Notes: generated by a model from the sequence alone, not told the origin. A DNA stretch of 64,000 nt from Longimicrobiales bacterium (GCA_965238005.1 OZ250165.1:2272001-2336000), one strand, 5' to 3'. Positions 719-9,925 are shown, counted from the first letter of the stretch. Numbers and translations are program-made.

Positions 719-1003
719 CTAGGAGCCTGCCCGAGTAATGGGGCGAGCCGCGAGAGGAGGACTGGAGGCGCGTCCCATCGCCGAGCGCAGTCGCCTGCGC
801 AGCTCGACCTCCGATATGGTGGCCAGCGCTCGTTCAGCCGTGCCGAGGCTGTTCCAGCGCACGTCCAGGAGGTTCACGCCTTCATCGTCAGTCCCACCCC
901 TGGGGTGGAGGTGGAGGTAGTAGCGACCCTTGTAGTCCGTACCCGACTCCGATCGTACGGTGGCCACCCAGGTGCGTCGGTCTTCGTCCAGGAAATCCGT
1001 CAT
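719..1003 (-). CDS. Small hypothetical protein (94 aa)
   Basis: Clean ORF with ATG directly downstream of the AraC gene on the same strand; globular composition; no recognised motif. Confidence 0.65.
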   Translation of the reverse strand: MTDFLDEDRRTWVATVRSESGTDYKGRYYLHLHPRGGTDDEGVNLLDVRWNSLGTAERALATISEVELRRRLRSAMGRASSPPLAARPITRAGS

Positions 1004-1053: not shown

Positions 1054-1902
1054 TCAGGCCACTGATGCTCGCGACGCAGCCGAGATCTCAAACCCGCAAT
1101 CGCGGAAAAAGTGCCTGAGCACGAATGACAACCCCCCCCTCGCGGCCACCATCGTGGGCGTGGCGCCGGTATAGCTCTTCAGGGCCCTGCGGAACGCCGC
1201 CCCGGATGAATACTCCAGCTGCCGGCTGACGCTCTGCCCCGTCCGCCCGGGATCCCCCAGCCAGTGACCCGCATGGAGGAGCCGCGACCACACCAGGAGG
1301 CGTCCGATGGCCGGCAAACCGGCCCTCTTCAGGCCTACGCTCAAGAAGGGTCGAGAGAGACCCATGAGGTCGGAGAACTCCTCGGCCGACCAGCACTTGT
1401 GGACTTGGTCCAGTACGAGCCTCAGAGCCTTCGTTTCACGCGGTGGAAGCTCGGGGCTCACCTCACGAAGCACCCGAGACGTCACGCCTCTCTCTCGCGC
1501 CTTGTCGACGCTTCGCAACAATCGCCAGGCCTGATCTTCACTGCCCAGCAGAACCAGGCTCCGGAAACCGAGGCGTCCCACCTCGAAGAGAGTTCGCGGA
1601 TCCTCCTTGGCAGTGGCCAGAAGAACGAATCCCACGCTCGGAAAGTCCCGCCGCAACCTCAAAAGCCGCTCCAGCCCGCCCGGACCCCATCCCATGGACG
1701 TCAGATCGACCAGGCATACGCTCACCGGCCGCTCCCGAAGGGACAGCGCAAGCCAGCCGAGCGTCCTGGACTCAGCGACGTCGTGTACGGCCGAGAGAGC
1801 ATCTCGGAGGCTGGACTGGACCCGTGGATCCCTGGTGAACGTACTTGCGAGCGCCATGACCTTCGGAAAAGATATACCCGTGGCCGGAAATGATTGCGGC
1901 AT
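1054..1902 (-). CDS. AraC-family transcriptional regulator with N-terminal receiver-like (degenerate) domain; start may be 1857
   Basis: C-terminal AraC double HTH (WSAEEFSDLMGLSRPFL...VSRQLEYSSGAAFRRALKSYTGATP); N-terminal VCLVD strand pattern is receiver-like. Confidence 0.8.
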   Translation of the reverse strand: MPQSFPATGISFPKVMALASTFTRDPRVQSSLRDALSAVHDVAESRTLGWLALSLRERPVSVCLVDLTSMGWGPGGLERLLRLRRDFPSVGFVLLATAKEDPRTLFEVGRLGFRSLVLLGSEDQAWRLLRSVDKARERGVTSRVLREVSPELPPRETKALRLVLDQVHKCWSAEEFSDLMGLSRPFLSVGLKRAGLPAIGRLLVWSRLLHAGHWLGDPGRTGQSVSRQLEYSSGAAFRRALKSYTGATPTMVAARGGLSFVLRHFFRDCGFEISAASRASVA

Positions 1903-1984
1903 CTAAGGATGCCGCATCCACCTTTATCAAGTTATATGGTGCAGTCGCGCCTCACCAGCCCCACTTTCGGAGGACATCGGTCTC

Positions 1985-2154
1985 ATGAGGAAGCGCTTCG
2001 CATCTTATTCGCCGTCGCCACCTTCTCGTTCGCATTGGGTGCCTGCTCGTCCCCCGCCGGCCTGGACTGCACCACCGGAGATAGCTTCTGCCAGTCGGGC
2101 AGCAATGGTCACAATCCGGGCAGCAACGGTCACAACCCGGGCAGCGGCGGCTAA
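1985..2154 (+). pseudogene. Small secreted lipopeptide precursor (MRK-ALRILFAVATFSFALGA|CSSPAGLDCTTGDSFCQSGSNGHNPGSNGHNPGSGG) with a 1-nt frameshift after codon 3, or an assembly indel
   Basis: GGAGG at 1969-1973 and ATG at 1985; the hydrophobic stretch, LGAC lipobox and repeat tail lie in the -1 frame (ORF-track 1894..2154); restoring one base near 1991-1993 gives a canonical signal peptide. Confidence 0.65.
2096..2145 (+). repeat. 21-bp tandem repeat (about 2.4 copies) encoding GSNGHNP
   Basis: cgggcagcaatggtcacaatc / cgggcagcaacggtcacaacc / cgggcagc; the differences between the two full copies are synonymous. Confidence 0.9.
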
Positions 2155-3965
2155 GTAACCAGCTCGCCCTCCGTCGACAACTGGCCCCGCATAGCGTTCA
2201 GCTCGCTGCGGACTCCGTCGATGCCCTCGAGGGTCGCGGGTTCGGTGGGTGCACTCGCACCCTCTGCTGCGAATTCTCCGGCGCTTAGGGCTTCGAGGGC
2301 AGCCTCCGCCTGGAAGGAGATCTGGTTGTTGCCGTGCTCCTCGGAGTACGTCTTCGCTTCCGTGAGTCAGCGTTCAGCCAACTCCATGTCCCCCAGGAGG
2401 CCATAGGCCTTACCGCGATAGAGAAGTAGCTCGGAGACCATGAAGGGCGACCCGCTTCGCCAGGCCGTCTCGTCGACGGCCTCGAGTCGAGCCTCGAACT
2501 GTTTTCGACGGCCCAGAAGAGCCTCGATGTAGGCCAGGGCGTCCAGCGCGTAGACCCGATAACGGAAGTCCTGCGTACAGTGTGCCACTACCGTGTAGGC
2601 GTCTTCCGCAGCCGCGAGCTCACCCACCTCGACAAAGGCCCAGGCCAGGTCAGAGAGGGCCTGCAGCTGGTCCCGCTCCGAAGGATAAAGGCGAACCGCC
2701 TCCCAACCGTGCCGGATCGCCTTCCCGGGGCGACCGGACAGCTTCTCGTCGGTCATGAGGTCGTGGTGACTCAATCCCTGCACGTAGCGGTCGCCATCCG
2801 CCTCTCCCCACTCCAGGGTCTGTCGATGCAGCTCGAGGGCTCGCGGCAGGTTCCCCTTCTCCCGGAGGGCGTTCCCCAGCCCCAGAGTCGCCATAGCCGA
2901 CAGCCGGCCGTCGTCGAGCGCCCCACCCAGGTCCTGGGCCACCCCGTACCACTGCTCGCTCTCGTCCCATGCGCCGAGCCGGCGATGGGCTCTGCCGAGG
3001 AAGCGGGCGGCGGATCCGGCGATGGCTCCCGATCCACAGGTCACCGCTACCAGGTAGGCCAGGTTGAAGACCTCCCGAGCCCCGTGCAGGTGCCCGAGCA
3101 TGTCCACGCGGTCCGTCAGCTCCAGGAGAGAGCGTCCCAGCTCTACCCCGTCGCCGGAGCCGAGGGCTTCCAAGACCGCGCTCCAGCTCGCTCGCTCGGG
3201 ATCGCCCCGGTCCACCGCGTCGAGCTCGCGCCCAACTCCCTCGACCTGCTGACACAGGGCCTCGGGATCCAAGATGAGCTCCTCGTCCAGTGCGGACCGT
3301 ACCGCACGGGCAACGAGGAAGCGCGCGGCGATCCGGCGATTCGTCTCGGCGTCGGCCTCTCGCCCCTCCAGGTCCTTGAGGATCGCCCATCCGGAAAAGG
3401 TCTCCCCCGCCTCGGGACCGGCGCCCTTCCGCGGGCGCCTCGAACCGGCCGCTTTGCGGTCCAGATCCTGATGAAGAACCACGGCCGCCGCCTCACCAGC
3501 GAGGAACATGAGCTCGTCCGTGACCTCCACCGCGAGCCGCGCTCGGGGCGTCAGAGAGTCGACTATGAGGAACCAAGCCCTGGTTCCGTCGCTGCCCATG
3601 GCGACGCAGCAGGAGCTGCGGACGCCCGAGATCGGGATCTCACCGGAGCGCTCGGTGTCCGGCAGGTCGAGGAGGCCTGGCACACCCTTGCCCCACACGA
3701 CGCGACACGCCTGCATCGCGAAGTCTCGCCGGGGGGGATTCCCCACGAGGTCCAGCAGGCAGTGAACGTGAACCAAGCCGGGCCCGTATTCATCGACCCA
3801 AACGACGGCGGCCCGATCGGCCCCGACCAGCTCCTGCGCCGAGGTGAGATACCCCAGGAGGCATGAGCGCGCCGGGTCCCCCCGGTAGAGCGCGGCGGTC
3901 TGCTCGGACCGTTTCGCCCGCCCGCTCCGGTAATCTGCGAGGCGTGGAACGTTCGAAGTAGACAT
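2151..3965 (-). pseudogene. GAF-like + tetratricopeptide-repeat protein interrupted near its 3' end by an in-frame TGA (2367-2369)
   Basis: N-terminal GAF-like segment (LVGADRAAVVW...SSCCVAMG...FLAGEAA); TPR-like helices (LGRAHRRLG.WDE, LGNALREKGNLPRALELH); the frame continues 71 sense codons past the TGA (LTEAKTYSEEHGNNQISFQAEAAL...) to TAG at 2151-2153. Confidence 0.7.
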
Positions 3966-4034
3966 CTATGCCGGACCAAATAGCTTGTCGGGGGGATCCT
4001 TTAAAACTAGGTATCGGGAGCGGGAAAAACAACG

Positions 4035-5027
4035 GTGACCTCTATCCCCAATCACACCTCGTCTATGGCCGCAACCGCCGAAAACGGAGGGTCAGGCGCC
4101 CCGCCAGCCCCGGGTTCGCAGGCCGAAAGGCCCGTACTGCGGGTCGACATCCTCCTTGTTGTATTATGTGTCATCTGGGGAGTGAACTTCTCCGTCATTA
4201 AGGTGGCGCTGGTCGAGATCGAGCCCCTCGCGTTCAATGCCCTCAGGTTCCCCCTCGCCGCCGTAACGCTCTTCGTGCTGTTGAGATGGCGGGGTCCTAT
4301 CCCCCTTCCCCAACGGGGCCACCGGGCTCGCGTTGTCCTTCTAGGTCTTCTGGGCAACCTCGTGTATCAGTTTCTGTTCATCTTCGGGATCGACGGGACT
4401 CTGGTCGGAAACGCGAGCCTCGTCCTCGCAACAACGCCGATCTGGACCCTGGTCCTCTCCACCGCGCTCGGCCAGGAGCAGCATGCGGTGGCCGTCTGGG
4501 TGGGCGTGCTGGCGACCCTGGGAGGCATGGTGCTCGTCGTCGCCGGAGGCAGCAACGCCGTAAGCTTCGCGGACGGTCTCCCCAGGGGCGATCTGCTCCT
4601 GGTTGCCGCTGCCGTCACATGGTCCGTCTACACCGTCGGAGCTCAGGATCTGACCCGCCGGTACGGAGCGCTCGCCGTTACATCCTGGACCCTGTGGATC
4701 GGCACCGTGGGCCTTGTAGCCGCCGGCGCCGCCTCCGTCGCTGAGATGGACCTTCGCGCGGTCTCTCCCATGGCATGGGTCGGGGTCGCCTACGCCGGTA
4801 TCCTCGCTATCGCCATCGCGTATCTGCTGTGGAACCACGGGTTGCAGCACATCGGCAGTGCGCGGACTGCGGCGTTCTCGAATCTCGTTCCGGTCGTCGC
4901 GCTCATCACCGCGGCCCTGTGGCTCGGCGAAGAGCCCTCCGTTCTCCAGATGGCAGGCGCAATAACCATCATCGGAGGGGTGTGGCTGGCCCGTGTGGCC
5001 AGGACCAGAGAGGGATCGTCCGCCTAA
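4035..5027 (+). CDS. DMT/EamA-family transporter
   Basis: About 10 hydrophobic helices in two EamA repeats (IWGVNFSVIK...LRF; LVPVVA...WLGE). Confidence 0.92.
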   Translation: MTSIPNHTSSMAATAENGGSGAPPAPGSQAERPVLRVDILLVVLCVIWGVNFSVIKVALVEIEPLAFNALRFPLAAVTLFVLLRWRGPIPLPQRGHRARVVLLGLLGNLVYQFLFIFGIDGTLVGNASLVLATTPIWTLVLSTALGQEQHAVAVWVGVLATLGGMVLVVAGGSNAVSFADGLPRGDLLLVAAAVTWSVYTVGAQDLTRRYGALAVTSWTLWIGTVGLVAAGAASVAEMDLRAVSPMAWVGVAYAGILAIAIAYLLWNHGLQHIGSARTAAFSNLVPVVALITAALWLGEEPSVLQMAGAITIIGGVWLARVARTREGSSA

Positions 5028-5821
5028 CCCTTCGAGCCCGACTCCAGCCTCGGGTGATGCCGGACCTCGGGGAACTCGTACACGATGATCCCCTGGTTGG
5101 TCACATCCGAACGGACCCTGAGCCCGTCGTCCATGGACTCCAGCACGCTCTCGGCCACGGCCAAGGAGAGGTTGAGCGAGGCGGCCACCTCGGTCACGGT
5201 GAGGGTCCCGCCTTTTTCCGTGGCCAGGAGCAGCACGCGGCGCTGCAGCCGCGTCATGAGGGCCCTTCGACGATCCTGGCGGGCCTTGAGCCCCCACCAG
5301 ATGGTAGCGGTGCCCCCCGCTCCCATGACGCTGCCCACCGCCACGGCGGCGAGATCGAACTCGACGAAGCCCACGGAGATTATGAGCGCAGCCGCGAGGA
5401 CAATAGCCACACCGAAGACTCTCCGGCCGATCCCACGTCTGGGAAGCGGCTCGTCGGCCTCGAAATGCGGACCGACTGCGACCGAGCCCGCCAACGCCGG
5501 CGCACGGGCCGCTCCGGGACCCAGCACTGCCGCGTTCTCCCAGCCCAGGCCGCACTGGGGACAGATCCTGTGTTTACGGCGGGCCAGCCAGTATGCCAGC
5601 CCCCCCAGACCGTACGTGAACAGCGAAACACCGATGAGGAGACCCATGTGTCCGGGCCGCTTGAAATACTCGATTCCGTTCCCCACGTATGCGCACCGCG
5701 GGCAGCTCCGCACTCCCAACCCCACCGGACGCGCGACGGAGCGCAATGAAACCGCCACCCCACAAGTGGGACAAGCGGTTTCGTGCTCTCTCAGATGCTC
5801 ACCACAGGTAGAACAGCGCAT
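5024..5821 (-). CDS. Membrane protein with N-terminal zinc ribbons and a C-terminal winged-helix-like domain
   Basis: CxxC motifs (CSTC/CPTC; CPRC/CPQC), hydrophobic segments, C-terminal GGTLTVTEVAASLNLS...IVYEF. Confidence 0.75.
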   Translation of the reverse strand: MRCSTCGEHLREHETACPTCGVAVSLRSVARPVGLGVRSCPRCAYVGNGIEYFKRPGHMGLLIGVSLFTYGLGGLAYWLARRKHRICPQCGLGWENAAVLGPGAARAPALAGSVAVGPHFEADEPLPRRGIGRRVFGVAIVLAAALIISVGFVEFDLAAVAVGSVMGAGGTATIWWGLKARQDRRRALMTRLQRRVLLLATEKGGTLTVTEVAASLNLSLAVAESVLESMDDGLRVRSDVTNQGIIVYEFPEVRHHPRLESGSKG

Positions 5822-5914: not shown

Positions 5915-8086
5915 CTAGAACAGCCTCACGAGTTTGAGTCGCAAACCGGCCTGCAGGGGAGCCGGCCCCCCCTCTGGGCCCGCCAGGTTCAAGGCCAATC
6001 CTCCTTCCCCACTTCCCAGCAAGAAGTATGCACCTGAGGACGACCAGAGCCGTCCCTCGGCAAAGAAATCCCCGACCGTGATGACCGTGGGCCTCAACGA
6101 GAAGGACCCGACGCCTTCCGAGAGGGTCTCCACCAGATCGATACCCGGGAACTGCAGGGCCGCCCTCACCGGGATCTGGCTGTTCCCAGAGAGCTGCCCC
6201 TCCACCGCGATCGCCGCGCTCCAGTCCGAGAACAGAGCCTCCCAGTCCCGGCCCGTCACCGCCTCCACGTTATCGATTCCGGTCCGCGTGGTCTGGGTCA
6301 GCGACGCCAGGACGGCATCGCTGCCCGCCTGGTCCCTCAGGTAGCGAACGAACAGCCAGCCCGCGCCACGCTCTTCGAGCGTCCCCTGGCCGATGACGAC
6401 GATCAGGCTCACGTCGGCCGGATCCGCAAGGAATCGATTCGCTCGTCGCCAATTGCCCTTCTGAAAGTCTTCGGCATCGAGGCTCCCTCGCCTACGCAAC
6501 TCCTCTCCGACGAGGTCCTCGCTCATCTGGGCAAGCCCCTCGGAGAGCCAGAGCACGTCGGCACGCTGCCCGCCTCGCTGAATGATCCGCTCGTTGTGGT
6601 GGATCATGTGCTGGAGCTCGTGGGCGAGAATGGCCGGCACGGTGGCTCGGATGAGGTTCAGGCTTTGGACGTTGCCGTACCGCCCCGTGGGGTCGGGAAT
6701 CATCACGTAGAAGATCTCGGCCGCATTGCTGTCTTCGGCCTCGGTGAAGAGATCCAGGCCGAAGAAGAATCCGCCCACGAAGTCGCTGGAGCCCGGTGGG
6801 GTCAGTCGATTGACGGTGGGGGTGAAGAGGATGATGACCTTCTCGTTTCCGTCCACGTCGGAGAGTTGTCCGAAGGCTCTCACGTCCACGGTGTAGATCG
6901 GATCGTCGAAGACGCTGCCGAAGCGCTCCAGGTCGGCTGGTGCCAGGCTGCCGAGGGCTGCGACGTCCACATACAGGAGGGCTCGCTCCGACACCCCGCG
7001 AACCTCCGCCGTGACCTGATCGAACTCGCCGTCGGCCCCCACCACCTTGAAGTCCCTACGGTCCCCCACCTCGGGCGCTCGCGCTGCCGGTGAGAGAGCG
7101 GGCCGCGCCAAGGATGCTCGCTGCTTGCCGAGGAGCTCCTCCTCCAGGGCCCGCAGGAACACCTTCCACTCCTCCCGAATCGCCCGGTCATGAGGCTCGG
7201 AAGCGGTCAGCCCTCCACTCGAAGGAGACACCAGGCGGGCTGCCGGTGTTTGCGACGACCGCCGCAGGCCTGTGAGCGCGTAGTCGAATCGGGCCGCACC
7301 GATGGAGCTCGCAGACTGGGCAACGGCCAGCCAGTTCCCCACCGCCAGGCGGAGGCACGAAGGGCCGTCTCCGATGACGACGGTCGTATCGGCCCCGAAG
7401 TCCGGATCGAGCGCCGCACCGGAAGCCCGAATACCCAGGGAAAGCGCTCTGCTCGCTTCGTCTCCCAAACGCACCGACACGTCCACCGTCGTGCTGGGCA
7501 GACATGGCGGCACCTCTACGGAGAGCCGGGTCGGCCCTGCGGCCATGACGGATCCGCGAATCCCCGAGAAGAGTACCACGTTATGAGATGCGATCGCGCT
7601 GAAGTTGTCTCCGTCCAGCGTGATGAGGTCTCCGGCATCCGCGGTGACTGTAGACAGCCCCGTGAGCTGTGGGGGAAGCACGGCCCATGCCTCGAACTCC
7701 ACGAACCGCTCGGGTTGGTCTCGAAGCCGAGCCTGTATCAGGTAGCGGCCCAGGCCGTTGCCCAAGCGGAGGCGTGCCGTCGCCAGCCCGGTGGAGTCGC
7801 TCTGGCTGGTCCCGGGGTCCAACTGCGCGCCGGAGCCTTCTACGACCGACCACTCCACCACGACGCCCTCCACGGGCCGTCCATCGCCGATCCGCAGAGC
7901 CGACACGGTCAGGGGATCTATGAGGAACTGACCGGAGGGTCCGAATTGGCCGCTCCCCGACACGGCCACCAGGTCGACTTCCGGTGTGGGCGGCTCGGTA
8001 GGACCGTCCTCGGAGCAGGTCGTGATGCCCAGTGAAGCGAGGAGGGTGACTCCGACGAGGAGCCTGCGCGAAAACGGGTCCATCAC
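5915..8086 (-). CDS. Lipoprotein with Ig-like/IPT-TIG domains and a HEXXH zinc metallopeptidase domain
   Basis: Signal peptide ending TTC; Ig-like region; AGDLITLDGDNF (IPT); AHELQH plus downstream WLSEGLA (gluzincin-type third ligand). Confidence 0.8.
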   Translation of the reverse strand: MMDPFSRRLLVGVTLLASLGITTCSEDGPTEPPTPEVDLVAVSGSGQFGPSGQFLIDPLTVSALRIGDGRPVEGVVVEWSVVEGSGAQLDPGTSQSDSTGLATARLRLGNGLGRYLIQARLRDQPERFVEFEAWAVLPPQLTGLSTVTADAGDLITLDGDNFSAIASHNVVLFSGIRGSVMAAGPTRLSVEVPPCLPSTTVDVSVRLGDEASRALSLGIRASGAALDPDFGADTTVVIGDGPSCLRLAVGNWLAVAQSASSIGAARFDYALTGLRRSSQTPAARLVSPSSGGLTASEPHDRAIREEWKVFLRALEEELLGKQRASLARPALSPAARAPEVGDRRDFKVVGADGEFDQVTAEVRGVSERALLYVDVAALGSLAPADLERFGSVFDDPIYTVDVRAFGQLSDVDGNEKVIILFTPTVNRLTPPGSSDFVGGFFFGLDLFTEAEDSNAAEIFYVMIPDPTGRYGNVQSLNLIRATVPAILAHELQHMIHHNERIIQRGGQRADVLWLSEGLAQMSEDLVGEELRRRGSLDAEDFQKGNWRRANRFLADPADVSLIVVIGQGTLEERGAGWLFVRYLRDQAGSDAVLASLTQTTRTGIDNVEAVTGRDWEALFSDWSAAIAVEGQLSGNSQIPVRAALQFPGIDLVETLSEGVGSFSLRPTVITVGDFFAEGRLWSSSGAYFLLGSGEGGLALNLAGPEGGPAPLQAGLRLKLVRLF

Positions 8087-9084
8087 CGCGGGATGGTCGA
8101 CAAAGCCAGCAACTCGAGGATCGGGCTCCCGGTCAGGGTCGCGGATCCGGTTCTGACTCGTCCGATGACGCGAATACGCTCCAGAGGGCTTAGGCCCTCG
8201 GCCTCCTGGAGCCGCTCCGGCGGAATCGCCACATAAACGAATACGCCTTCTCCACGCCCAATCCTGGTGAGGAGGAACGGCTCTCCCTCGTAGAAGTCCG
8301 TTCGGATCTTCTCAGCCCGTTCTAGAGAGATGAATTGGAGATCCCACTGGAGCACCCGGCCGCGGTACTCGAGGGGTGCGGCAGCGACGTCTTCGGTGCT
8401 CACGTCCGTGAGGACAGCGGTCTCGCCCTCCACGGCCGCGCCCTCCGGAAGCCACGTCCACCCGTCTAACCTGACCCTCGCCCAGTTTCCCTCTCTCGCG
8501 AGGATCCTCAAGTTCGCCCCGGGCACGGCCGTGGCCAACGTGTCTCCGTCGGGAGTGCTGAGGATGGTCGCCTCGGTCTCCCCACTGCTGGTCCACTGCT
8601 CGGCGAGAATGACCTCCGCCCCCCGAGGGGCATCGCCCGGCGCCGGGCCTTCGAGTTCCACGGACTGGCTCCAGATCCACGCACTTCGGCGCACCCTGAC
8701 CCATCCGGGCACCCTCTCCACCTCTTGCAGGAGGGTCCCTTCCTCCAATCGACCGATGACATCCCCCGACGGAGTAACCCTGATGTTCTCACCGCCCGAG
8801 GCCGACACCACAAGGTCGGAGTCGACGCGGCTGACCACCTGAAGCGATCGGGTCCAGACCCACCCCATCAGCTCGAACTGGAGCCAATCGTCGGCGAGGT
8901 CCAGAACCGCAAGGGCCGCACCGGGGCGGAGTTGGCCCAACAGCGTCCCGTTCGGCTGGGCGCGAAAATTCTCGTCTGCCGTCACGGTTCCGCTCTGTCC
9001 GACGAGACCCTGATTGAAAAGCACCGCAAGACAGGCGCCGAGGAAGACCGTAGTGGCCCGCAATCGCTGAAAATCCTCGCTCAT
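8083..9084 (-). CDS. Secreted protein with three SH3-like repeats and a C-terminal OB-fold-like domain (start approximate)
   Basis: Repeats ENFRAQPNG..GWVW, ENIRVTPSG..AWIW, ILSTPDG..NWARVRLDGWTW; stop overlaps the ATG of the next gene. Confidence 0.7.
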   Translation of the reverse strand: MSEDFQRLRATTVFLGACLAVLFNQGLVGQSGTVTADENFRAQPNGTLLGQLRPGAALAVLDLADDWLQFELMGWVWTRSLQVVSRVDSDLVVSASGGENIRVTPSGDVIGRLEEGTLLQEVERVPGWVRVRRSAWIWSQSVELEGPAPGDAPRGAEVILAEQWTSSGETEATILSTPDGDTLATAVPGANLRILAREGNWARVRLDGWTWLPEGAAVEGETAVLTDVSTEDVAAAPLEYRGRVLQWDLQFISLERAEKIRTDFYEGEPFLLTRIGRGEGVFVYVAIPPERLQEAEGLSPLERIRVIGRVRTGSATLTGSPILELLALSTIPR

Positions 9085-9226
9085 CTTCCTGAAACGATCC
9101 TCGACAGACGGTGTTGAAAGGGTGATCTTCCGGCCCTCTGGACGACGGCAGACGTCACTTGGACGAATGTGTTCCAACCAGTGACGGTCGTCAAATACCC
9201 CTAAACCAAACGTCGAACCAGCTTTC

Positions 9227-9925
9227 ATGCCACACCCGAGAACAATCTACTTCCTACTCCTAGGAGCGTTTCTGCTCGATTCCGGCCCGGCCACCGCCCA
9301 GGACATTCCGTCGTCCTACCGCTTCGTCGAGAACTCCCAGGAGGGAGGCCTCTTCATCGGAACTGCGAGCCTCAATGCAGGTCAGCTCGGCCTGGGGCCG
9401 AAGTCGGCGAACGTCTTCGGAGGCCGCTACTCCGTCATGTTCGGCGGTGCTTTCGCCTTCGAGGGCGACGCTACCGTCTTCAAGGGCGAGCGGGACGTGA
9501 TCGACATCCGCCGGAGCGAGGATGATCGGGTTCTCGGGCAATCCACCATCGACCTCGTCGCCATCGACGCCCGCTTCAGGCTCAACCTGACGGGCCACCG
9601 AATCTGGCGGGGCTTGCAGCCCTTCATCGCCTTCGGGGGTGGGATGGCCTGGGGTAGCGATCTGGAGCGCACCCTGGAGGATGAAGTCGACATGCCGCTC
9701 CTGGACCGGTACGATTTCGGAAGAAAGTTCTTTGCGACTCTTTCGGGAGGCACGAACCTCCACCTCTCATCTCGCTTCATGCTGCGGCTGGATGGCGTAA
9801 TGAATCTCTTGAAGATCAGCACGCCGACGGGATGGCTCACCACCGATGCCGATCTGGGAGCGATTCCAGAGGACGAATGGGTATCGGCGCGAAACCTCTC
9901 CATCGGAGCCAGTTGGCGCTTCTGA
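9227..9925 (+). CDS. Outer-membrane beta-barrel protein
   Basis: Signal peptide (ATA|Q), amphipathic strands, C-terminal SIGASWRF. Confidence 0.75.
   Translation: MPHPRTIYFLLLGAFLLDSGPATAQDIPSSYRFVENSQEGGLFIGTASLNAGQLGLGPKSANVFGGRYSVMFGGAFAFEGDATVFKGERDVIDIRRSEDDRVLGQSTIDLVAIDARFRLNLTGHRIWRGLQPFIAFGGGMAWGSDLERTLEDEVDMPLLDRYDFGRKFFATLSGGTNLHLSSRFMLRLDGVMNLLKISTPTGWLTTDADLGAIPEDEWVSARNLSIGASWRF

Follow-up and report, generated by a model that had tools for sequence, protein, structure and literature searches.

Known peptide-receptor systems and the cassette

RRNPP(A) receptor-propeptide pairs are described, in the accounts cited here, for Bacillota and their mobile elements (PMC10075063, PMC12700828), and a large survey of RRNPP systems is outlined as covering only Firmicutes and viruses. 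The criteria set out in one of these accounts are an adjacent gene, a propeptide of 10-100 aa, and its export (PMC10075063). Tandemly duplicated pheromones within one propeptide are mentioned for phage Rap-Phr systems (PMC11343458). The subject of this report is a three-gene cassette at positions 1054 to 3965 of a window of 64,000 nucleotides, the whole stretch of DNA that was analysed, from a Longimicrobiales bacterium (GCA_965238005.1 OZ250165.1:2272001-2336000; positions are counted from its first letter). The cassette consists of a gene for a small lipoprotein-type precursor with tandem heptapeptide units, a gene for a tetratricopeptide repeat (TPR) protein, and a gene for an AraC-type regulator with a receiver fold. 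These genes are gained or lost together at a fixed site, and they are also inherited and duplicated as a unit. The cassette is widespread in Gemmatimonadota, the copy described here being one instance of it, and the small gene is a real gene under strong purifying selection on its peptide sequence. By analogy with the described systems, the leading reading of the cassette is peptide signalling of the RRNPP/Rap-Phr kind, with a probability of roughly 0.4.

The likenesses to the Rap-Phr systems of Bacillus include an apparently cytoplasmic TPR protein of about nine repeats without a helix-turn-helix (HTH) domain of its own, an adjoining small gene for a precursor that is exported and in which the short, lineage-specific C-terminal portion is likely to be active, an accessory character with gain, loss and duplication of cassettes, and a response-regulator-type protein as the likely target. 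The differences are equally concrete. The cassette precursor has a lipobox, whereas Phr has a plain Sec signal. The cassette peptide gene is convergent with the TPR gene and overlaps its 3' end, while the Phr gene lies downstream on the same strand. The N-terminal domain of the TPR protein is GAF-like or absent, in contrast to the three-helix bundle of Rap, and the partner regulator (receiver plus AraC) is encoded within the cassette, in a host from a diderm phylum. Moreover, the TPR protein of the cassette matches generic TPR proteins better than it matches Rap, and homology is unproven.

In the PrgX/PrgQ system of Enterococcus pCF10, a piece of an ordinary lipoprotein's signal peptide serves as the pheromone, and PrgX carries its own HTH. 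The cassette resembles this system in its putative receptor gene and its peptide gene, which are transcribed towards or across each other in an arrangement suited to antisense control, and in its lipoprotein-type precursor. On the other hand, the selected part of the cassette precursor is the C-terminal mature region and not the signal peptide. Yeast alpha-factor and neuropeptide polyproteins are multi-copy precursors with spacers and dibasic processing sites and no lipid anchor. They share with the cassette several identical short units per exported precursor, whose identity is kept by selection, but they are unrelated to the cassette precursor in sequence, and no processing sites are known in the cassette. 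Receiver-domain AraC/XylS regulators likewise have a C-terminal two-HTH domain behind a CheY-like fold; they differ from the present case in that the cassette holds no histidine kinase.

The small lipoprotein gene and its peptide units

The original prediction, made from the sequence, placed an AraC-type gene divergent from a small peptide frame with a lipoprotein signal and C-terminal tandem seven-residue repeats. This frame was said to converge, with overlapping stop codons, on a gene for a GAF and TPR protein, which in turn is divergent from an EamA gene. The positions of the open reading frames (ORFs) agree with this layout. On the minus strand, transcription passes through the TPR gene (3965 to 2370) and then the AraC-type gene, and the small gene lies antisense between both. 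The small precursor gene (1985..2154, plus strand) has a Shine-Dalgarno (SD)-like GGAGGA, ATG 1985, and TAA 2152-2154, the last of which overlaps the TAG 2151-2153 of the TPR frame; in this genome the gene is frameshifted. The lipobox context FALGAC is present, and the frame ends at 2154 with ...CQSGSNGHNPGSNGHNPGSGG (...FALGACSSPAGLDCTTGDSFCQSGSNGHNPGSNGHNPGSGG). Tandem 21-bp repeats (2096..2151, plus strand) encode GSNG-HNPGSNG-HNPGSGG, which corresponds to about 2.4 heptapeptide units, and Tandem Repeats Finder reports a period of 21 with 2.4 copies and 93% matches at 2096-2145.

Orthologous loci were collected from relatives and from a profile pattern scan of one genome per species across bacteria and archaea. 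The small gene was sought with the lipobox pattern M..[KR]..hydrophobic..[AGST..][AGST]C, which combines a charged n-region, a hydrophobic h-region and the lipobox Cys, on the opposite strand and within 600 bp of the TPR 3' end. Such an ORF was found in 64 of the 70 orthologous loci that contain the TPR 3' end, and three pattern misses with a full flank carry the small gene on inspection (one broken by a run of N). When the three loci that end 119-201 bp past the TPR gene are left out, an adjoining small gene of the exported propeptide type, which the original prediction had expected beside TPR homologues, is present at 67/67 loci, the window's own gene being frameshifted; the corresponding figure for the top loci of the phylum is 26/28. 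The same pattern matched only 36 of 1176 control windows, none of them with a tandem peptide repeat. An SD-like motif precedes the small gene in 58/65 cases. The product is predicted from these features to be a lipoprotein of the signal peptidase II type, anchored by lipid.

The precursors comprise 40-90 aa, with an M-K/R-rich signal, the lipobox Cys, a linker of 6-25 aa that often contains ..GPD and often two Cys, and then the C-terminal units. The number of units varies from one (16 genes) through two (10), three (12), four (5), five (4), six (13) and seven (3) to eight (2), and nearly all units have seven residues. They differ by lineage, with examples such as HNPGSNG, HTLGSGN, YDLGSDN, YNPDPGQ, IQPGTGN, YQPGPNG, HTPDSGS and GTLGSGN. 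An aromatic residue or His is common at position 1. More than 25 distinct units were seen, and the copies in any one gene are identical.

The identity of the units is maintained at the level of the peptide. In the 49 orthologous genes with at least two units, neighbouring units differ at 397 codons in the ORF frame, of which 387 are synonymous and 10 non-synonymous. In the other five frames, the synonymous and non-synonymous differences are 5/352, 5/349, 13/384, 286/68 and 3/354. The ratio of 387 to 10 identifies a real gene with strong purifying selection on its peptide and not a mere DNA repeat. A peptide product made in multiple copies would agree with identical tandem units under such selection. 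His-based metal binding, N-glycosylation sequons and cyclophane (aromatic-x-x) motifs were considered as a shared meaning of the units and rejected, as each suits only some of them. A scan of 1700-2500 against Rfam matched no known RNA family.

A separate observation concerns locus L030, where two tandem small lipoprotein genes (4831-5135) lie 3' of one TPR gene and end in ..IIPGPNT and ..DCYIIPGPNTYTCE. They represent a duplicated peptide gene with a linear and a Cys-loop form.

Joint inheritance and breadth of the cassette

Within the family of the window, 14 of 25 genomes have orthologues of both the TPR protein and the regulator, and the remaining 11 have neither. Four genomes without the cassette keep the order S13 peptidase, orf94, EamA, zinc (Zn)-ribbon gene, (M30 peptidase), orf381. 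Because this flanking synteny persists in their absence, the unit of insertion or deletion is exactly the TPR gene, the small gene and the regulator gene, located between orf94 and EamA. The three-gene arrangement, whose conservation had been named as a check on the original prediction, is thus conserved and gained or lost jointly.

The profile pattern scan gave 81 relatives. The best 80 are all metagenome-assembled genomes of the Gemmatimonadota lineage by record title, bar one entitled 'uncultured bacterium'. When 301 genomes were sampled evenly across the phylum, 203 gave a match to the regulator model and 125 to the TPR model; both tallies include the unpublished genome G192. From the 30 top TPR loci, 28 were examined, the window's own locus and an unpublished one being left out. 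The regulator is adjacent in 26 of them and a convergent small lipoprotein gene is present in 26. Both loci without an adjacent regulator (L146 and L161) lie at contig ends. As for the two loci without the small gene, L146 stops at a contig end, and L139 has a full flank in which none was found on inspection.

Triads in other families across the phylum occur without the GAF-like domain. Their peptides end in ..FEGQGANN, in ..GYMGSGT, in six SGYNGSGT units, or in a Cys-x7-10-Cys loop. Another family has the order regulator, TPR gene, small gene, in which the small gene is still placed 3'-to-3' with the TPR gene. The constant element is the adjacency of the TPR gene and the peptide gene, which persists when the regulator is placed on the opposite side. 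In one genus, each genome carries several paralogous TPR-regulator pairs, with the small gene in 6 of the 8 examined. Regulator paralogues that stand alone, without TPR or peptide gene, account for 10/10 in one family.

The TPR protein

The TPR gene (2370..3965, minus strand, first 532 codons) matches Pfam TPR_12 with an E-value of 3.3e-11. Its product has no signal peptide or membrane segment by eye, and it is likely to be cytoplasmic. An AlphaFold2 (AF2) model was obtained for an intact orthologue of 95% identity, with a predicted local distance difference test (pLDDT) score of 88.5. It comprises an alpha/beta domain (9-165), a disordered linker, 18 helices in nine pairs (206-561), and a C-terminal helix (580-603). 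A TPR-type, peptide-binding superhelix of five or nine repeats is expected of RRNPP receptors; one of nine repeats is present at the level of the fold in this model, and the TPR region is predicted to form a superhelix of the kind that binds extended peptides.

Structural comparison of the TPR part gave LGN/Pins as the best match (Foldseek E 5e-9; VIA Z 19.6). The VIA matches also include the RapH-Spo0F complex (Z 17.4), phi105 Rap with peptide (16.7), NprR (15.4) and PlcR (14.1), some of them peptide-bound structures, and Foldseek returned RapI with an E-value of 2e-5 (rank 34) and NprR with 1e-4. In a PDB profile search, Rap reached E-values of 0.003-0.03 against approximately 1e-10 to 1e-11 for LGN and OGT, which are generic TPR matches. 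In NCBIfam, the TPR region weakly matches the TPR protein HaaT of cyclophane ribosomally synthesized and post-translationally modified peptides (RiPPs), with an E-value of 1.1e-7 and 30 bits at a cut-off of 1125. A complex prediction for the intact orthologous TPR protein with the 39-aa mature peptide gave a score of 0.02 and a mark of 0.32, which speaks neither for nor against binding.

The GAF label that the original prediction had given to the protein finds support by resemblance. Residues 1-175 scored 0.97 in an atlas feature search, with 28 of 30 matches in GAF sets, and the model has an alpha/beta order; the N-terminal domain had no match in Pfam. The domain is accordingly called GAF-like here, and this assignment is unproven. 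A fused effector domain, either an HTH or the N-terminal helical bundle of Rap, was not found in the TPR protein, the N-terminal domain being GAF-like or absent.

The regulator and the control region

The regulator gene (1054..1857, minus strand) is intact, encodes 267 aa, and ends in TGA at 1054-1056. The listed ORF extends over 1054..1902. The start is most likely ATG 1857 and not the ORF end at 1902, because 61/61 orthologues start at the aligned codon. As a single sequence, the protein matches Pfam HTH_18 with 27.4 bits, under the cut-off of 33.6. The family profile matches AdpA (E 1.5e-7), VirS (1.9e-5), SoxS (2e-4) and also GadX. In the AF2 model (pLDDT 92.2), residues 1-120 form a (beta-alpha)5 domain, and an all-helical domain with helices at 125-254 comes after it. 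The C-terminal two-HTH domain that defines the AraC/XylS family is thus found by family profile and model together. Foldseek relates the regulator to StyR, RcsB, FixJ, NarL and the HupR receiver (target template modelling score 0.73). Residue D51, aligned by eye with the phospho-acceptor Asp, is nearly invariant. When the consensus was read by eye for the conserved Thr/Ser and Lys of receivers, no conserved Lys stood out after strand 5; the receiver may be independent of phosphorylation.

The small gene is divergent from the regulator gene in most arrangements, and a conserved control region of 108-166 bp separates them. Within it, the non-coding motif GGTATATCTTTTYCGAAGRTC (1858..1879, minus strand), which includes the inverted repeat ATCTT..AAGAT, abuts the regulator ATG on its 5' side. 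The motif stands directly 5' of the ATG in most loci that were listed or aligned across genera, with 13 invariant columns in an alignment of 41 sequences, and a transcription start may lie at the conserved GGTATATC...ATG motif. In function, GGTATATCTTTTYCGAAGRTC is probably either a core promoter, from which a near-leaderless mRNA would start, or an operator.

A GC-rich inverted repeat followed by ATCATTT (1890..1921, strandless) lies between the divergent small gene and the regulator gene. The local fold gives -37 kcal/mol with a z of -2.5. With per-sequence folding, a hairpin of -10 kcal/mol or below, differing in sequence, occurs at the equivalent place in 25 of 41 loci, with a mean z of -1.5. 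RNAalifold on the region upstream of the regulator did not capture this variable hairpin, and a scan for consensus terminators did not call the hairpin at 1890..1921. A scan of 1700-4200 for promoters and terminators found nothing resembling a promoter, and its single terminator-like site, located within the TPR gene, does not exceed the number in shuffles. The hairpin may end the TPR transcript or act as an operator. If a terminator of the TPR transcript is followed by a near-leaderless regulator promoter, the 3' untranslated region of the TPR mRNA may be fully antisense to the small gene.

Damage to the cassette in this genome

Two genes of the cassette are damaged in the genome under study, and in this respect the intact peptide ORF of about 56 aa and the uninterrupted TPR protein of about 600 aa in the original prediction had to be given up. 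The only ATG that is preceded by the SD-like GGAGGA is ATG 1985, and it opens a frame reading MRKRFASYSPSPP.... The lipobox Cys codon (2044-2046), the two-Cys linker, the repeats and the TAA are all in the frame of 1894..2154. Relative to the sister species, which is 95% identical, the window contains two additional nucleotides, GCGC versus GC at 1993-1996. This 2-nt insertion puts ATG 1985 out of frame with the signal peptide, the lipobox and the repeats, and the peptide gene is frameshifted after codon 3. In the sister species (L021/L002), the orthologue is an intact gene of 58 aa and reads MRKLRLLFAVAALSFALGACSSPAGLDCAAGDSLCQQ(HNPGSNG)x3.

The TPR frame has an in-frame TGA at codon 533 (2367..2369, minus strand), a nonsense change from Trp that leaves 532 codons and removes the last 72 residues. 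The rest of the frame (2151..2366, minus strand) stays open for 71 codons up to TAG 2151-2153 and encodes the last TPR helices and the conserved C-terminal helix (VRxxLxAMR). Orthologues run uninterrupted over 576-615 aa and have Trp at this codon in 8 of 10 cases, with one Ala and one Tyr. Reading of TGA as Trp or another genetic code was rejected, since the adjoining regulator gene ends in TGA and the orthologues have a TGG-type Trp.

Over both lesions, the window is reproduced without a difference by contigs assembled from the public runs of two studies (X1; X2 and X3), and those of X1 and X2 span the TGA site. In a third study (X4), a variant occurs that lacks the two additional bases. The lesions look real because the contigs from two studies agree with the window at both places. 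Assembly error behind both lesions is disfavoured by these exact matches, with the reservation that one run is possibly the source sample and that the kind of library is unrecorded. The regulator gene and all neighbours are intact. The cassette copy in this genome is probably inactive or decaying, and the joint damage to the peptide and TPR genes, which is a single case, fits the two working together.

Other members of the genus also deviate. In L003/L025, the TPR gene is split over three frames and the small gene is intact with two HNPGSIG units, which indicates either further decay in the genus or indel errors of assembly. Another genome of the genus has a peptide gene with a single degenerate unit.

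Flanking genes and related genes in the genome

The EamA gene (4035..5027, plus strand; Pfam E 3.6e-45) is divergent from the TPR gene. The original prediction described it as the neighbour of the TPR gene; it is kept in genomes without the three genes. EamA, the Zn-ribbon membrane protein, orf94 and the M30-like lipoprotein peptidase were each rejected as members of the module, as they remain in place where the three genes are missing. Matches on the expected strand among 80 loci number 67 for the regulator, 76 for the Zn-ribbon membrane protein, 48 for EamA and 60 for orf94, and EamA is absent from 32/80. The Zn-ribbon gene is found in 24/24 genomes of the family, 8/8 of a second family, and 0/8 of a third.

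The gene orf94 (719-1003, minus strand) encodes a conserved protein of 94 aa that neither Pfam nor NCBIfam matches. It follows the regulator gene immediately downstream and is kept where the cassette is missing. The Zn-ribbon gene (5024-5821, minus strand) encodes 265 aa with an N-terminal double zinc ribbon, hydrophobic segments flanked by CPRC/CPQC pairs, and a conserved C-terminal ..VYEFPE.. sequence. The M30-like gene (5915-8086, minus strand) encodes a lipoprotein-type protein of 723 aa with an HELQH motif, a weak Peptidase_M30 match (E 0.08) and TIG/Big_1 domains. This peptidase is found in 62/80 loci, all with a conserved C-terminus upstream of the Zn-ribbon gene. The gene belongs to the backbone and not to the cassette, close to which its product is a candidate for an extracytoplasmic protease. 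The next gene (8083-9228, minus strand) overlaps the start of the M30-like gene by 4 nt and belongs to the conserved backbone; its product of 381 aa shows weak similarity to SH3_4 and to TorC-like proteins (pentahaem cytochrome).

The genome also holds a second receiver plus AraC paralogue (G000:C1:62151-62915), with 32% identity and an open frame of 442 aa. No member of the TPR family was found near this paralogue, and a TPR search of the genome itself gave only the window's copy. Two intact SBP_bac_5 genes, encoding binding proteins of the Opp/Dpp type, are present. A further SBP_bac_5 match (G000:C1:544438-544959) has two internal stops (TGA, TAA) and is probably a pseudogene.

Possible function of the cassette

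In the signalling model, the precursor would be exported and anchored by lipid, and its C-terminal unit or units would be freed by proteolysis. The peptide would then be re-imported, Opp-type binding proteins being encoded in the genome, and bound in the TPR superhelix. The TPR protein would subsequently control the receiver-AraC regulator, as the HTH-less Rap proteins act on response regulators under the control of Phr, and the outcome would be to set the transcription of the cassette and other targets. Overlapping convergent transcription of the TPR gene and the small gene may add antisense control. The units are identical within a gene yet differ between lineages, which argues for specific recognition of each unit, and the TPR protein and the regulator are the only lineage-specific partners in the cassette. 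Comparative work supports the core idea of a peptide, TPR and regulator set, and none of the refuting tests named in the original prediction counted against it; the interpretation given there is partly supported. As for the proposed analogy to RRNPP systems, the multi-copy peptide, the TPR superhelix and the co-inheritance fit, whereas homology to RRNPP proteins is indistinguishable from generic TPR similarity.

Several points weigh against peptide signalling. Scores of the TPR protein against RRNPP receptors do not surpass those against generic TPR proteins; the predicted fold is right for binding an extended peptide, yet gives no evidence of RRNPP ancestry. The lipobox and the diderm envelope mean that release, passage and re-import are all assumed. 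The Cys-x7-10-Cys ends of many members suggest an oxidised extracytoplasmic structure, which is a poor fit to a cytoplasmic receptor, and the GAF-like domain could be a true sensor of small molecules. There is no detectable small gene in 2 of the 8 paralogous TPR-regulator pairs and in 2 of the 4 loci of one family. In addition, the counts of loci and codons come from related, non-independent genomes, and the number of independent observations is overstated.

The alternative that survives best reverses the order of events. In it, the TPR protein, by way of its GAF-like domain or of a protein partner, and the receiver-AraC factor would respond to some other cue and turn on the small gene; the lipopeptide would be an output, for example of the envelope or surface, and no signal. 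The divergent position of the small gene, with a control region towards the regulator gene, is the usual layout of an AraC-type activator and its target, and the lipobox predicts a membrane-anchored product. The Cys-loop C-termini suggest an extracytoplasmic folded epitope, and a GAF-like sensor domain is present in the lineage of the window. This domain is absent from most of the family and is therefore not a common sensor. Moreover, the invariant neighbour of the small gene is the TPR gene, and the order regulator, TPR gene, small gene leaves the small gene and the regulator without a divergent arrangement. If the role were generically structural or biophysical, variation between units would be tolerated, but these are kept identical within a gene despite divergence of the DNA (387 versus 10) and differ sharply between lineages. 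The cassette also holds no other output gene. An output role of the lipopeptide is the main rival to signalling and is somewhat less probable than it.

Much less probable is a role of the TPR protein as a chaperone, export gate or recognition scaffold that binds the units of the precursor before export, as in some RiPP clusters. Re-import would not be needed in this case, as the nascent precursor and the TPR protein share one compartment. The frequent aromatic residue or His at position 1 of the units agrees with such handling, but units like GTLGSGN and IQPGTGN have no aromatic residue. The HaaT match points in the same direction, although it falls far short of the 1125 bits set as cut-off and is confined to repeats of generic TPR type. 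No modifying enzyme is encoded in the cassette, and the genes on either side are part of the backbone and belong to other families. Finally, that the small frame is no gene, and that its 21-bp repeats are slippage-prone DNA elements such as AraC-type half-sites, for which a period of two helical turns is the known spacing, or a template of antisense RNA, is hardly credible: the frame is broken in the window and the convergent overlap with the TPR gene is conserved, but the start codon, signal peptide, lipobox and stop are conserved in 67/67 loci and the SD-like motif in most, the repeat DNA diverges synonymously while the peptide stays constant, and the single-unit and Cys-loop members have no DNA repeat at all.

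Peptide signalling of the Rap-Phr type can be extended to a wider proposal, which is tentative and has the odds somewhat against it. Gemmatimonadota would possess a large and diversifying family of genetically encoded peptide-pheromone cassettes. Cell-cell signalling of RRNPP-like type would then be found for the first time beyond Bacillota and in a phylum of diderms. Signals would be cut from a polyprotein that is anchored by lipid and contains as many as eight identical heptapeptides, and they would be read by a cytoplasmic TPR protein controlling a receiver-AraC regulator. Paralogous cassettes, several of which occur in some genomes, would represent 'pherotypes', and convergent antisense transcription would be part of the switch.

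Significance

A literature search, with subscription journals outside its scope, returned no description of such a cassette in Gemmatimonadota. The well-studied phyla other than Bacillota are described, in the account cited above, as using enzyme-made small molecules for signalling (PMC10075063). Peptide signals that are genetically encoded and read by cytoplasmic receptors count as a hallmark of Bacillota. A conserved and self-contained cassette of a receptor-like protein, a peptide and a regulator in a diderm phylum that is abundant in the environment and poorly cultured would extend this paradigm, if the reading is true. The family would then also offer dozens of natural peptide-protein pairs for tests of specificity and a new design of precursor, in which a lipobox is combined with identical tandem units. 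The small lipoprotein genes were met in this analysis only as unannotated ORFs. Even if signalling fails, a family of very small lipoprotein genes is established that is strongly selected and tied to a specific pair of regulators.

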